Part shown: one piece after another, positions 4,968-8,959 of the stretch
How positions within the stretch are numbered: position 1 is the stretch's first letter
Layout of the letters: each line of letters begins with the position of its first letter
IMG/VR virus record: IMGVR_UViG_2609459801_000008
Source: a virus
Taxonomy: Duplodnaviria > Heunggongvirae > Uroviricota > Caudoviricetes
DNA length: 14,589 nt
Reading direction: 5' to 3' (one strand)
Position numbers and translations under genes: made by a program
Notes under the pieces: generated by a model
Database searches by the model: none
Seen by the model: the letters and a program-made list of their open reading frames with translations, nothing else
What the model was told of the DNA's origin: nothing

Positions 4968-5351
4968 TTACGCTCTCCTTAACTGGATAGAGTAAACTGA
5001 TGCGGAAGGATCTACACTTGCTGTAATTACCTCGTATCGTTGTAACTGCCTTGATACAGGATCATAAATCTCAATAATATGGTCGACAGCTGGTTTATCC
5101 GTAACCTCGCATACCAGAGCGGTTAATTTAAGGTCACCATGCAAAATATTAATCCCATCAATTCTGCCCAGCTTATAACGTGTCAACACGCCTCGCCCGG
5201 TATAGATTGCGGTGGATTCGCCGCCAGTTTCCGTCACAGGATCCCAGTGCCGGTGCGTAACGTAAGAACCAGAAAAATCACTCACGGCGTCCGCTAAATC
5301 CTCATCAAAAGCAGCGGCAACCTCTGACTGAATCTCTTCACGAAGCCCCAT
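4968..5351 (-). CDS. Head-tail adaptor / joining protein (positional)
   Basis: 127-aa ORF inside the tightly packed connector gene block, with TAATG overlap to the upstream gene. Confidence 0.4.
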   Translation of the reverse strand: MGLREEIQSEVAAAFDEDLADAVSDFSGSYVTHRHWDPVTETGGESTAIYTGRGVLTRYKLGRIDGINILHGDLKLTALVCEVTDKPAVDHIIEIYDPVSRQLQRYEVITASVDPSASVYSIQLRRA

Positions 5352-5746
5352 TATCCCCCCCTCACAACCCTGACTTGTGAGCGACTAAGTCCGTACGGTT
5401 TCAGCAGTGCTATCGCAAGCTGTAAATCGGGTTCAAGCAATGCAGTGCTGTTTGCTGGCAACTCAGAAAATGATTTCGATACACTGACCCCGTCAGCCGA
5501 CACGGCTTTACTGATAACAACGCCAGAATCATTTTTCTGCTGAAACAACTTACCGAATGAGGCAATTCTGGCTGCATATGCTCCCGCAAGTTTTACCTCT
5601 TCCGGAATACGGGATGGGTTAATTTTCAGGTTGAAGCCATTAAGCCAGGCATTAGCCATTAAAACAGCTTTATTTTTAGCGTTCTCACTCGTCCAGGCGT
5701 TCCCAAACGCATTATCAACGTCATCACAGGTCACGTAAGTGATCAT
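5351..5746 (-). CDS. gp6-like head-tail connector protein (tentative)
   Basis: 131-aa ORF, first gene of the connector block. N-terminal pattern (MITYVTCDDVDNAFG…KAVLMANAWL) resembles gp6-type connector proteins. Start overlaps the upstream gene by 23 nt. Confidence 0.4.
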   Translation of the reverse strand: MITYVTCDDVDNAFGNAWTSENAKNKAVLMANAWLNGFNLKINPSRIPEEVKLAGAYAARIASFGKLFQQKNDSGVVISKAVSADGVSVSKSFSELPANSTALLEPDLQLAIALLKPYGLSRSQVRVVRGG

Positions 5747-6443
5747 GTGTTCCGGAATCCAGATACAGCTCGGTCATTCCGCCGCTGTTTTTCTGCGTCT
5801 GTTTCTGCCCTAACTGGACAGCACCGATCGTCATAAACAATTCACCACAGCGACCGAGATTCGTGTACGTATTCACATCCTCGTTAATGCGCCCCATGAA
5901 TGAGAACGGTCGATCAACCGAACAGATAAAGCTGTTCATTGCCTTGCGTTTCACCCACGAAGCATGGCCGCCATTGTCACCAAGAAAATCCCCGCCCTGC
6001 GACATAGCGATGGAAAGAGCAGGTATTGATTCGTAGTACGCCAGCATTTCAGAAAGGATCGCATCCAGTTTCCTTATCGGAAAATAGGCCTGGTCATAGT
6101 TGCGATCCACCCGAAACTGGAACTCGTGATAATCATCATCGAGCTGAATGAAGTATTTACACCCGACCAGTTTTGCCAGGTCGAAACAGGCATTACGGGC
6201 GTAAAAAATTGAGCGGCGGTCACAGAAATTATCGGCTTCGTCAAAACGACTGGCGATATCGGCTTTGGAAAACACCAGCACCTGTTCACCAAATTCAGCC
6301 ATGTACTGATTCCGTGTCTTATCTTCATCATCAACAACGATAAAAATTTTCCCGGTATAGCCAGCACGACGCAACGTCCGGTAAGTCAGAACTTTGTCCG
6401 GTCGCCCGTGAGTCAGAATAAAGGCGCAAAAATCATCACGCAT
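5724..6443 (-). CDS. Hypothetical enzyme-like protein with paired acidic motifs (possible nucleotide-sugar or nucleotidyl transferase fold; function unknown)
   Basis: Track ORF is 5724..6464 (246 aa). I prefer the ATG at 6443 (239 aa, MRDDFCAFILTHGRPDK…) because it has a strong SD (GAGGAGGAGG) and overlaps the ParB-like stop as ATGCGTGA. Alternating hydrophobic strands plus IVVDDED and QLDDDY clusters suggest a Rossmann-like DXD enzyme. Inference only. Confidence 0.5.
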   Translation of the reverse strand: MRDDFCAFILTHGRPDKVLTYRTLRRAGYTGKIFIVVDDEDKTRNQYMAEFGEQVLVFSKADIASRFDEADNFCDRRSIFYARNACFDLAKLVGCKYFIQLDDDYHEFQFRVDRNYDQAYFPIRKLDAILSEMLAYYESIPALSIAMSQGGDFLGDNGGHASWVKRKAMNSFICSVDRPFSFMGRINEDVNTYTNLGRCGELFMTIGAVQLGQKQTQKNSGGMTELYLDSGTHDHLRDL

Positions 6444-7227
6444 ATTCCTCCTCCTCACCACCATGCATGATCTCCACCATGCGCTGCGTCATCCGGACAA
6501 ATCCATTTTCAATAGCCTGCTGATAATCAATGATCACCAGCGCCGACTCCTCGAAAAAACACTGAATTTCAGAGGGGGCGTGAGCGTAATAGTCCGCAAT
6601 TCTGCTGAAATTAAACACCGTGTGACGTTCTGCCGCACACAGGAGGAATTTCTCAATATCAGGCTCAAGGGACGCCGAACGTATCCGGCTGATCAGCTCC
6701 TGAGTTTTCGTATCGTCGTACAGTTCACTGATATCCGGTTTACCGCCCGACGGCTCATAAACAGGCGTATCAATTTTCGTCGTATACGGCTCCTCCTCAT
6801 TTCCTGTACCGGGCAAAACATCCGTCAACAGTTCATCAATTTCTGTCGGGATGAAGCCTGTCAGGGAGACATCAAAATCAGCATTGATTAGGTCCGACAG
6901 GTCCATCCGCAACAGATCTTCATCCCAGCCAGCATTCATCGGCAGGCGATTATCTGCCAGGCGGTACGCCTTTTTCTGCTCATCCGTCAGGCCAGACAGA
7001 ACAATGACCGGAACAGAATCCATTTTGAGCATTTCAGCCGCCATAACACGACCGTGACCCGCAATAATTTCGCCCTTTTCGTCAATCAGCACCGGATTAG
7101 TCCAGCCGAATTGCTTAATACTTTCTACCAGTTGTGCCACCTGCTCAGGGCTGTGCGTCCTGGCGTTGTGCGCATACGGTGACAATTCTTGTAATGGGCG
7201 ATAGACTATCTTTAATTTCTCGCTCAT
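6436..7227 (-). CDS. ynaK: ParB-like nuclease (ParB/Srx N-terminal domain) protein, Rac ynaK-like by synteny
   Basis: 263 aa. N-terminal region has ParB-N features (…VLIDEKGEIIAGHGRVMAA…, a GxxR box), and the C-terminus is an acidic tail (GGEEEEYA). It lies immediately downstream of trkG, as ynaK does in the Rac prophage. ATG at 7227. Confidence 0.7.
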   Translation of the reverse strand: MSEKLKIVYRPLQELSPYAHNARTHSPEQVAQLVESIKQFGWTNPVLIDEKGEIIAGHGRVMAAEMLKMDSVPVIVLSGLTDEQKKAYRLADNRLPMNAGWDEDLLRMDLSDLINADFDVSLTGFIPTEIDELLTDVLPGTGNEEEPYTTKIDTPVYEPSGGKPDISELYDDTKTQELISRIRSASLEPDIEKFLLCAAERHTVFNFSRIADYYAHAPSEIQCFFEESALVIIDYQQAIENGFVRMTQRMVEIMHGGEEEEYA

Positions 7228-7244
7228 ACAGCCTTGCTTTATGA

Positions 7245-7278
7245 ATAAAACGCACCCCAGCAGCCAGTGCTACTGGGG
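7245..7278 (-). terminator. Candidate intrinsic terminator downstream of trkG
   Basis: Inverted repeat CCCCAGCAG-ccagtg-CTACTGGGG (8 of 9 pairs). On the minus strand it is followed by TGCGTTTTATTCAT. Sits between the trkG stop (7365) and the ParB-like start. Confidence 0.45.
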
Positions 7279-7364
7279 ACGGAGGGGTTGCTGGTAAAGT
7301 TAGGTATTGGATCAATGAGTGAGTCAACATAATATTAAACTCACAATTATAAATCAGCCATATA

Positions 7365-8822
7365 TTAGGAGCGCCAAAAAAAACCTGAAAACAATATAAT
7401 AACAGGATAAATTTCAAGGCGACCAAGAATCATAGCTATGCACATTAAACATTTTGCAATGTCATTAAGCACTCCGAATGACGATGCAGTAGCCCCAAAA
7501 CCTAATCCCATATTATTAATACATGCAGCCACTGTTGCAAATGATGTAAGAAAATCATATCCCATACCATTTAACACCAGTATAAAAAACACCGTGAAGA
7601 GAGTATAAAGAAAAAAGAAACTCCATACAGACCTCATTACACGATCTGTAACTATCTTCCCTCCTACATTTACACTCAACAACGCTCTGGGATGAGAAAG
7701 CTGATTTATCTCGTGTTTGCTTTGTTTGAAAAGTATAAGAAATCGAAGTGACTTAATTCCACCACAAGTTGAACCTATACATCCCCCAAAGAAACTTGAC
7801 AACAGCAAAAACACTATCGTGTGCGTGGGCCAACTTGCATAATCCTGCGTAGCTAAACCATTATCAGTGAGCATGGAGCTGGCAAGAAAAAACGAATGAA
7901 TAAAACTTCCATGCAAGTCATACATACCTATATGCCAGACCTGGAAAGAGGTAACAATGATCACCCCTAAGGCTATTAACAGAAAGAAACGAAGTTCAAT
8001 ATCTCTGATTAAAGGTTTTATCGTTTTCCTGCTAATAACAATATACCAAAGAGTGAAGTTGAAAGCCGATAGCAGGGAAAAAGAACCAGCCACCAGCTCA
8101 ACCAAATAGTTATTAAAATATCCGATACTCTCGCTATGAGTTGAGAAACCACCAAGCGAAACTGTGGAAATCCCGTGACAAATAGCATCAAACAAAGGCA
8201 TTCCTGCAAGTCTATAACAGACAATACAAGCAATACCTAATAAAGAATAAGTTATCCACAGTGTCCGTGACGTATCGGCCAGGCGGGGAGTGAGTTTGTC
8301 ATCCTTAAATGGCCCCGGCATTTCTGACTGATAAAGCTTTGCACCACCAATACCCAATAATGGCAATACAGCAACCGCCAGAACAATAACTCCTAAACCA
8401 CCTATAAAATTTAACTGTGACCGATAGTACAAATATACCCGAGGTAATGAACTAACATCATCAATTACAGTTGCTCCTGTTGTTGTTATTCCAGAAACCC
8501 CTTCAAACAGAGCATCAATGAACGTTAAATTAAGTTCTGAGTCAATCCATAAAGGGAATGCACTAATAACAGAAAACAAAATCCAAAACATTACAATTAT
8601 AATAAACCCATCACGGGTACGTAATTGAATGCCAGATTTCTTAGTTGTATACCACGCTCCGCCACCAATGCAAAAAAATATAACGAAAGTTATAAAGAAA
8701 ACGAACAGGCTTTTTTCTTTATAAAACAATGCTACAACCATTGGTGGCAACATTGAAAGACTATAGAGCCAAACCAGGAACCCACACATATGAGTAACAA
8801 CTCTTACATGAGATGTATTCAT
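7365..8822 (-). CDS. trkG: Trk-system potassium uptake protein TrkG (TrkH family membrane protein), prophage moron
   Basis: Polytopic membrane protein with TrkH-family glycine signatures (GGLGVIVLAVAVLPLLGIGGAKL, CGGIKSLRF). First ATG is at 8822 (MNTSHVRVV…); the track's longer ORF to 8840 starts on TTG. AT-rich compared with the flanking phage genes. Confidence 0.93.
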   Translation of the reverse strand: MNTSHVRVVTHMCGFLVWLYSLSMLPPMVVALFYKEKSLFVFFITFVIFFCIGGGAWYTTKKSGIQLRTRDGFIIIVMFWILFSVISAFPLWIDSELNLTFIDALFEGVSGITTTGATVIDDVSSLPRVYLYYRSQLNFIGGLGVIVLAVAVLPLLGIGGAKLYQSEMPGPFKDDKLTPRLADTSRTLWITYSLLGIACIVCYRLAGMPLFDAICHGISTVSLGGFSTHSESIGYFNNYLVELVAGSFSLLSAFNFTLWYIVISRKTIKPLIRDIELRFFLLIALGVIIVTSFQVWHIGMYDLHGSFIHSFFLASSMLTDNGLATQDYASWPTHTIVFLLLSSFFGGCIGSTCGGIKSLRFLILFKQSKHEINQLSHPRALLSVNVGGKIVTDRVMRSVWSFFFLYTLFTVFFILVLNGMGYDFLTSFATVAACINNMGLGFGATASSFGVLNDIAKCLMCIAMILGRLEIYPVIILFSGFFWRS

Positions 8823-8959
8823 ATCTAAATATTCTTTCAATTATAACCACCTTGCTGCAATATTATGATTATACTGTATAAAATTTAACTCCTCTTAGAT
8901 CTTACTTCACTGTTCCTTATGAAACAATCATCAAAATGAATCATATTGTAGTTAAGATT

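Follow-up and report, generated by a model that had tools for sequence, protein, structure and literature searches.

Why a prophage-like region should run from its lysis genes into connector and tail genes, with nothing between them for packaging DNA or building a head, is the question raised by a stretch of 14,589 bp (IMG/VR record IMGVR_UViG_2609459801_000008). This stretch, referred to as the window, comprises the whole of a draft-genome contig (JNRZ01000074.1; GCA_000704965.1; 100% identity). The original prediction had described a gene order of lysis genes, trkG, a ParB-like gene, an unknown enzyme, connector and neck genes, tail genes and tape measure, and had proposed that the absence of terminase, portal, protease and capsid genes between lysis and connector genes leaves the element unable to make virions. 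With a probability of roughly 0.9, the window represents a cryptic (defective) Rac/DLP12-type lambdoid prophage that lost its packaging and head module by one deletion. The analyses described below establish the end-points of this deletion and reveal that one of them recurs, almost to the nucleotide, in other deletions of the same prophage family.

Genes were called from an open reading frame (ORF) listing combined with Pfam and PHROG scans and the annotation that RefSeq gives for near-identical loci. In the ORF listing, every relevant gene is on the minus strand, and the predicted gene order was borne out by that listing and the Pfam/PHROG scans. The scans revealed no terminase-, portal-, scaffold- or coat-like ORF within positions 5351-8840, in agreement with the prediction as far as terminase, portal and capsid are concerned. 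The missing protease carries no such meaning, because a separate prohead protease gene is absent from the relatives as well and was therefore never to be expected in the window.

Relatives were found by megablast, with the entire window as query against 5,426 complete Escherichia coli genomes. At least 80% of the window is covered in 12 of these genomes, and the matches listed span about 20-25 kb rather than 14.6 kb; among these listed matches, the extra DNA includes terminase, portal and coat genes. Two head-bearing prophages were retrieved, those of 81EVA (NZ_CP138397.1; L001) and MB10 (NZ_CP073988.1; L002). Both have the gene order of the window, with flanks 99-100% identical to it; unlike the window, they retain a 7.6-kb block that holds the 3' end of the gene for a TET-associated glycosyltransferase (TAGT), terS, terL, and the portal, MuF-like, scaffold and coat genes. 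In pairwise alignments, window positions 332-5751 correspond to L002 1001-6420 with 100% identity and positions 5749-12379 to L002 14055-20685 with 99.985% identity, and the 81EVA flanks are 99.1-99.2% identical to the window. Approximately 7,637 bp of L002 are missing exactly between window positions 5751 and 5752, and the comparison with head-bearing prophages, which the original prediction had called for, thus places both end-points of the deletion to the nucleotide. The two parental sequences have a 3-nucleotide microhomology, GTT, in common at window 5749-5751, and a single illegitimate deletion of about 7.6 kb joined the two GTT trinucleotides. Neither relative is fully intact, as the 81EVA prophage is cut after minor tail protein L beside bioA and the MB10 prophage has a broken ynaK.

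According to the Pfam/PHROG scans, the lost block encodes the last ~70 codons of TAGT, a helix-turn-helix ORF of 69-83 residues that matches a small-terminase PHROG (phrog_309), terS (364 residues, Terminase_2), terL (433 residues, Terminase_6N/6C), a portal protein (DUF4055), a MuF-like minor head protein, a DUF6651 scaffold-like protein, a P22-type coat protein and a 58-residue protein. When TerL and the small helix-turn-helix ORF were searched against PDB sequences, no usable match was obtained. The TAGT region is uninterrupted in 869 of the 949 complete E. coli genomes that hold it, which makes the absence of the head block from the window meaningful. Nothing found argues against the deletion itself. 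The window has the late-region order of a lambdoid prophage (Q, lysis, [packaging/head], connector, tail) and has lost virion genes that its close relatives keep, through the 7.6-kb deletion and through an insertion sequence, IS1, in the tape measure gene. Loss of the head block is routine prophage decay; cryptic prophages of this kind are well known, and the window adds a new deletion allele to them.

The junction also explains two features of the adjoining genes. The enzyme that had been listed as unknown is a C-terminally truncated TAGT (PF20691; 'GREB1-related'), encoded by a fusion ORF at 5724-6464 (minus strand; annotated start 6443). Its match to PF20691 lies above the gathering cut-off (E 7e-35, 121.3 bits against 27.5) and covers profile positions 4-205 of 205. 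The C-terminus is cut, with 217 of 270 phrog_842 positions matched versus 269 of 270 in MB10; about 70 C-terminal residues are exchanged for seven foreign ones, HDHLRDL, so that the ORF consists of native TAGT residues and a short out-of-frame tail that runs into the next gene. This gene encodes the head-tail adaptor Ad1 (5351-5746, minus strand; phrog_493, E 7e-49). Its coding sequence is intact, and the junction lies 5 nucleotides upstream of its ATG; comparison with the upstream sequence of the relatives shows that the deletion removed the native Shine-Dalgarno sequence, AGGAG. The 23-nucleotide overlap between the two genes (5724-5746), which had been proposed as a possible deletion scar, is real and was created by the deletion junction, although the scar itself is located 5 nucleotides outside the overlap. 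For annotation, the element should accordingly be described as cryptic, the unknown enzyme as a truncated DNA glycosyltransferase and the overlap as the trace of a deletion.

The junction of the window is contiguous in none of the 5,426 complete E. coli genomes, and exact-match scans with 26-40-mers across it returned no match in three contig collections (genome, metagenome and viral). An exact-protein look-up, which used the RefSeq-style start that yields 239 residues (the longest ORF has 246), identified the identical 239-residue fusion protein in draft genomes and metagenome assemblies (94 blocks). Eight further records match the window at 99.9-100% identity, and several of these are without IS1 (including L005 and L006). 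The presence of the same junction in near-identical contigs rules out an assembly artefact, and its presence in IS1-free contigs indicates that the deletion is older than the IS1 insertion. In the window, the IS1 end occupies the contig edge (1-331, with an InsB' ORF at 50-316 on the plus strand; PF03400, DDE_Tnp_IS1) and cuts the tape measure gene (327-2225, minus strand; PF06791, phrog_24), leaving 632 residues of the 1077 present in MB10 and 81EVA. This IS1 end is a 100% match to IS1A of MB10, which sits at another place.

The IS1-free contigs reveal additional damage. Their tape measure stops at 815 residues versus 1077 and is followed by an ORF of 603 residues that encodes a J'-'Lom fusion (L006 14492-16303) and then by a side tail fibre gene; these sister contigs carry tape-measure-to-J and J-to-lom deletions. 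The lineage bears several independent lesions in morphogenesis genes. On the longer contigs of the same lineage, early genes are found upstream and the truncated tape measure, J'-'Lom and side-tail-fibre genes downstream. Head genes beyond the window, which would have overturned the original prediction, are absent from either side on L005, L006 and L013. Taken together, the lack of terS, terL, portal, scaffold and coat genes, the lost ribosome-binding site of Ad1, IS1 in the tape measure gene and the tail deletions of the sister contigs argue strongly, on sequence grounds, that the element would be unable to make virions; with packaging and head genes gone, no means to cut, package or encapsidate DNA is left.

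One of the longer contigs, L013 (ENA ERZ1743094 NODE_25, 1-13224; 99.6% identical), has the same junction in a DLP12-like context of fimbrial genes, a fimZ-like regulator, integrase, rusA, Q, porin, lysis genes and trkG. This arrangement suggests that a Rac-type and a DLP12-type prophage recombined, or that homologous recombination has spread the deleted allele.

Alternatively, the head and packaging genes could reside elsewhere, beyond the contig or in another prophage that supplies them in trans, and the element could be mobilized like a satellite. The window is a single 14.6-kb draft-genome contig, several lambdoid prophages are usual in E. coli, and a median of 13 places per genome match parts of the window, all of which would accommodate such an arrangement. 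However, the block of the relatives sits exactly between TAGT and Ad1, where the window is contiguous, and the longer contigs of the same lineage are without head genes on both sides. In addition, a truncated TAGT and a lost ribosome-binding site are marks of a deletion and not of satellite design, and satellite hallmark genes are absent. This alternative is therefore considered very improbable. Even less credible is a domesticated F-type (flexible-tail) tailocin, in which selection would have kept lysis and tail genes and discarded the head genes on purpose: the lysis genes and an unbroken run of neck, tail-tube and chaperone genes in one orientation resemble F-type pyocins and other flexible tailocins, where a lysis cassette is followed by siphovirus-type tail genes without head genes, but the tail module of the window is broken by IS1 after 632 tape measure residues (815, with the J'-'Lom fusion, in the IS1-free sisters), the head-joining genes Ad1 and Hc1 are kept although a tailocin has no need of them, the near-perfect identity of both flanks to a head-bearing relative marks the loss as recent, the junction destroys one gene and one ribosome-binding site, and the head-less junction appears in no complete genome while most genomes that hold the region keep it intact (869 of 949), so that neither a complete tail module nor a head-less state conserved across strains is found and the several morphogenesis lesions of the lineage render this reading untenable.

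Comparison with the Rac prophage of K-12 places the element among known cryptic prophages. K-12 Rac, with the order trkG-ynaK-ydaY-tape measure remnant-lomR-stfR, is 99.6% identical to the MB10 relative over trkG/ynaK and 99.9% over ydaY/tape measure. Like the window, it has no head or packaging genes and its tail genes are disrupted by insertion sequences. In contrast to the window, it carries a different and larger deletion that extends from about codon 87 of ynaK to ydaY (L002 15280 to 3719); TAGT, the connector genes and the tail tube gene, all of which the window keeps, are therefore missing from it. Since K-12 lost the block by another deletion, the window is another decay product of the same prophage family. 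As a further difference from Rac, the lysis genes of the window are ones that RefSeq names after DLP12 in the relatives (essD, rrrD, rzpD).

The only surprising element of this locus is the recurrence of a one-sided end-point at nucleotide level. It first became apparent in several genomes whose match to the TAGT side of the window begins only at 5746-5750, with other DNA leftwards. The sequence at this position is GGTT/CCGGAA (window 5749-5752; L002 14046-14058). The sequence elements named for the region are TTCCGGAA and GTAAAAAC repeats.

The DNA joined to the truncated TAGT gene differs from case to case. Among complete genomes, the partner lies in the interior of stfR in 12 (L003, L004), at the 3' end of Ad1 in three (L017), in the tfa region in two (L018), and in a C-terminal tail-fibre fragment in L019. 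EC24 (L207; NZ_CP182191.1, 284-2503) has a complex rearrangement, in which the truncated TAGT is joined to an inverted terS segment (L002 12568-13724), beyond which a truncated terL (L002 12566 down to 11503) abuts a truncated sitA; the inverted segment is a classical signature of template switching. A search of the metagenome, species-representative genome and IMG/VR collections with a 28-mer from just right of the site yielded further junction types, with partners in gpJ, stfR and tfaR.

As an unbiased test, all 184 loci that contain the 28-mer were aligned to L002 and followed towards terS. Ninety-three of them are unbroken to the edge of the contig (median 3.3 kb). Twelve distinct junction types, represented by 31 loci, break within 11 nucleotides (L002 14046-14056), whereas the next 8.8 kb contain about 37 other break types at scattered positions, several of which are visible ends of insertion sequences. 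Per nucleotide, this corresponds to an enrichment of about 250-fold at the hot spot. The count of 12 refers to the 11-nucleotide span; it rises to 13-14 with L019 and possibly MDK9L1. Where both parental sequences are known, the crossovers map to L002 14055-57, 14056-57 (twice), 14054-58, 14056-60 and 14049-50, with microhomologies of 2-5 nucleotides; beyond these, the partner sequences have no motif in common.

The loss is directional. The other flank could be placed for 10 of the 12 junction types, and all 10 have lost or displaced terS. Alleles of the opposite kind, with the terS side retained and the TAGT side gone, were not found. Three candidates for such reverse alleles (L117, L157 and L182) were rejected, being only divergent homologues. 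The flanks of the junction types diverge from L002 by 0 to ~3%, and several types each retain DNA missing from the other and cannot be derived from one another, which argues that most junction types are independent events. These data show that the TAGT-side end-point of the deletion in the window is a one-sided deletion hot spot with at least 12 different junctions. It is undescribed in the searchable literature, as far as a non-exhaustive search could tell.

A second recurrent boundary was noted inside terS. At L002 12742, 25 of the 184 loci lose similarity to L002 exactly, probably at a mosaic boundary, and the similarity of phage Rac-SA53 is confined to L002 12742-13474 (89% identity). It therefore seems that terS is exchanged in modules, one N-terminal and one C-terminal.

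The geometry of the hot spot is reminiscent of other systems. Michel and Ehrlich reportedly described, in 1986, deletion hot spots at the nick sites of the M13 and pC194 origins, and Bierne, Ehrlich and Michel are said to have reported one at terB in 1991. As in the present case, one end-point is fixed to a few nucleotides in those hot spots, and the other varies, with little or no homology. In contrast to them, the site in TAGT has no origin, Rep/relaxase gene or Ter sequence, and the spans that are deleted are large, from 0.3 to more than 20 kb.

With the causes rejected below set aside, what is left is a site-specific break, nick or fork stall with polarity, and about even odds are assigned to a site-specific break or stalled fork as the cause of the hot spot. 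In a simple model, a fork travelling from TAGT towards terS would break or stall at the site, and the free nascent end would re-prime or join further downstream through 2-5 nucleotides of microhomology; this would remove the terminase genes along with head and tail genes over a variable distance, and would account exactly for the observed pattern. At the Rac locus and at attλ, the prophage has the orientation in which forks run from TAGT to terS, according to the established replichore map of K-12. Whether proteins of the phage itself, for packaging or DNA binding, bring about the break is more doubtful. If they did, the site could be regarded as a sequence-specific polar fragile site of the prophage family, tentatively one at which a putative cut, nick or fork barrier is made by such proteins. 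The terminase, the helix-turn-helix TerS-like protein and the ParB-like YnaK are conceivable agents, although their involvement is rather unlikely at present.

An attractive candidate for the trigger is a packaging site of the pac or cos kind, at which terminase would cut or nick the un-excised prophage and repair would delete the terminase side. The location would suit this role, as terS begins about 430 bp further downstream and the Nu1-like helix-turn-helix ORF (phrog_309) about 180-220 bp downstream. Three copies of GTAAAAAYY, one of them inverted, lie within 110 bp on the terS side, between the hot spot and this ORF (L002 13934-13942, 14003-14011 on the minus strand and 14036-14044 on the plus strand), in DNA that is deleted from the window. 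The motif was chosen post hoc, and with that proviso it occurs 11 times in 24 kb versus 1.2 expected copies; these copies are possible candidate binding sites for a packaging protein. Apart from them, inverted or direct repeats at the site amount to short chance pairs. The end-points cover ~11-17 nucleotides and have a sharp mode, a spread that a staggered cut followed by little nibbling would give, and terS together with part or all of terL is lost or disrupted in every junction type with a placeable flank.

Other properties of the locus fit a packaging site poorly. TerL belongs to Terminase_6N/6C, and among named phages its nearest relatives appear to be siphoviruses of the Jersey- and Kagunavirus-like kind, which are presumably headful packagers; in such phages, the pac site is usually found within terS or beside it. 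The hot spot is situated within coding sequence that is conserved. None of the phage records begins or terminates at the site, although the records found are prophages predicted in silico, so that GenBank is silent on physical ends; likewise, no contig was found that ends at the hot spot. Overall, a packaging site is considered possible but rather improbable.

Several points weigh against the proposed mechanisms of the hot spot. Some junction types may be successive and not independent; the Ad1-3' type, for example, could derive from the type found in the window. At the site, a hairpin or cruciform is not significant, as the predicted fold is no better than that of shuffled sequences (z -0.9), no promoter or terminator was found there, and no Ter-like sequence was found nearby. 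Two further points speak against a packaging site as well. In lambda-type packaging, the end protected by terminase is the one on the terS side (PMC12315714), which is the side that is lost here. Moreover, the TAGT/ParB region is missing upstream of terS in a Klebsiella phage whose TerL is 85% identical, and a pac site inside TAGT is therefore not required by this type of terminase.

Two further explanations were rejected: a Tus/Ter barrier, for want of a Ter-like match near the site, and protection by Chi, because the nearest correctly oriented Chi is 2.3 kb away and thus does not explain end-points at nucleotide level.

CRISPR self-targeting, a site-specific recombinase acting on pseudo-sites, or a former insertion sequence at the site are highly improbable causes. 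Deletions by type I CRISPR-Cas3 and deletions adjacent to insertion sequences are both one-sided, and an AACG-TA-GGTT core beside the site loosely resembles the crossover cores of Hin, Gin and Pin. However, the 79 nucleotides around the site find no match outside the TAGT locus when searched at E<=10 against the 5,426 complete genomes of E. coli, and hence no CRISPR spacer was found; the junctions do not retain GGTT, as crossover at a TA core would require, and the partner sites have no common motif; and no insertion-sequence end abuts any of the 12 junctions, although such ends are plain at other breaks.

The usual description of prophage domestication is one of random erosion by mutation, with selection as the filter. 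In the present family, at least a dozen junctions, in lineages with 0-3% flank divergence, start in the same 11 nucleotides and all extend in one direction. If a phage-encoded activity is the cause of the hot spot, it would provide a concrete mechanism by which a prophage disarms itself, as well as a natural system for microhomology-mediated template switching or end joining in E. coli. The path from active to cryptic prophage would then be self-inflicted and quasi-deterministic, with one-directional loss of terminase, head and tail genes.

The remaining genes of the window have the same order as in the head-bearing relatives. Downstream of Ad1 on the minus strand, the connector and tail genes comprise head closure Hc1 (4968-5351; phrog_161), Neck1/tail completion (4587-4967; phrog_169, E 3e-55), the tail terminator (4198-4590; PF13554, phrog_179) and the tail tube (3209-4171; PF18906, E 9e-32). 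They are followed by a pair of tail assembly chaperones (2391-3160; phrog_313, PF23812, PF27119), of which the first is G-like and of the YdaY family (2699-3160, minus strand) and the second T-like (2391-2624, minus strand), and by the tape measure.

Upstream of TAGT, a ParB/Srx-like (ParB_N) gene encodes a full-length YnaK homologue of 263 residues (6436-7227, minus strand). The ynaK homologue, which has 87 residues in K-12, is found directly upstream of TAGT, and in intact relatives the terminase genes come immediately after this pair. The ParB/Srx-like and TAGT pair (5724-7227) looks like a DNA-modification or anti-restriction module; a TET/JBP or methylase partner of TAGT is not visible within the window. 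The adjacent trkG gene for a potassium transporter (7365-8840, minus strand; PF02386) is a low-GC cargo gene. The terminator-like hairpin 3' of trkG, located by a consensus scan, occupies 7255-7278 on the minus strand, between trkG and the ParB-like gene, and has 10 pairs (7 G-C) followed by a T-rich tail. Its position is consistent with trkG being an autonomously expressed moron, and it weakens the idea of read-through from trkG as a source of terminase expression in lysogens.

The lysis cassette (8960-10133, minus strand) consists of holin (9918-10133), lysozyme (9421-9918), Rz (8960-9436) and Rz1 (9019-9204), all on the minus strand. Beyond the holin, a cargo block at 10321-13078 separates it from the Q antiterminator; on the far side of this block, the early region ends, in transcription order, with a truncated NinX, RusA, YlcG and Q. 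The cargo genes encode a Blc-like lipocalin (12554-13078, plus strand), a DUF523/DUF1722 (YbgA-like) protein (11402-12361) and, at 10321-10908, a regulator of the AraC type, which has 195 residues in the window versus 243 in 81EVA and is frameshifted in MB10. A stretch of low GC content (0.31-0.34) extends over 10500-11500.

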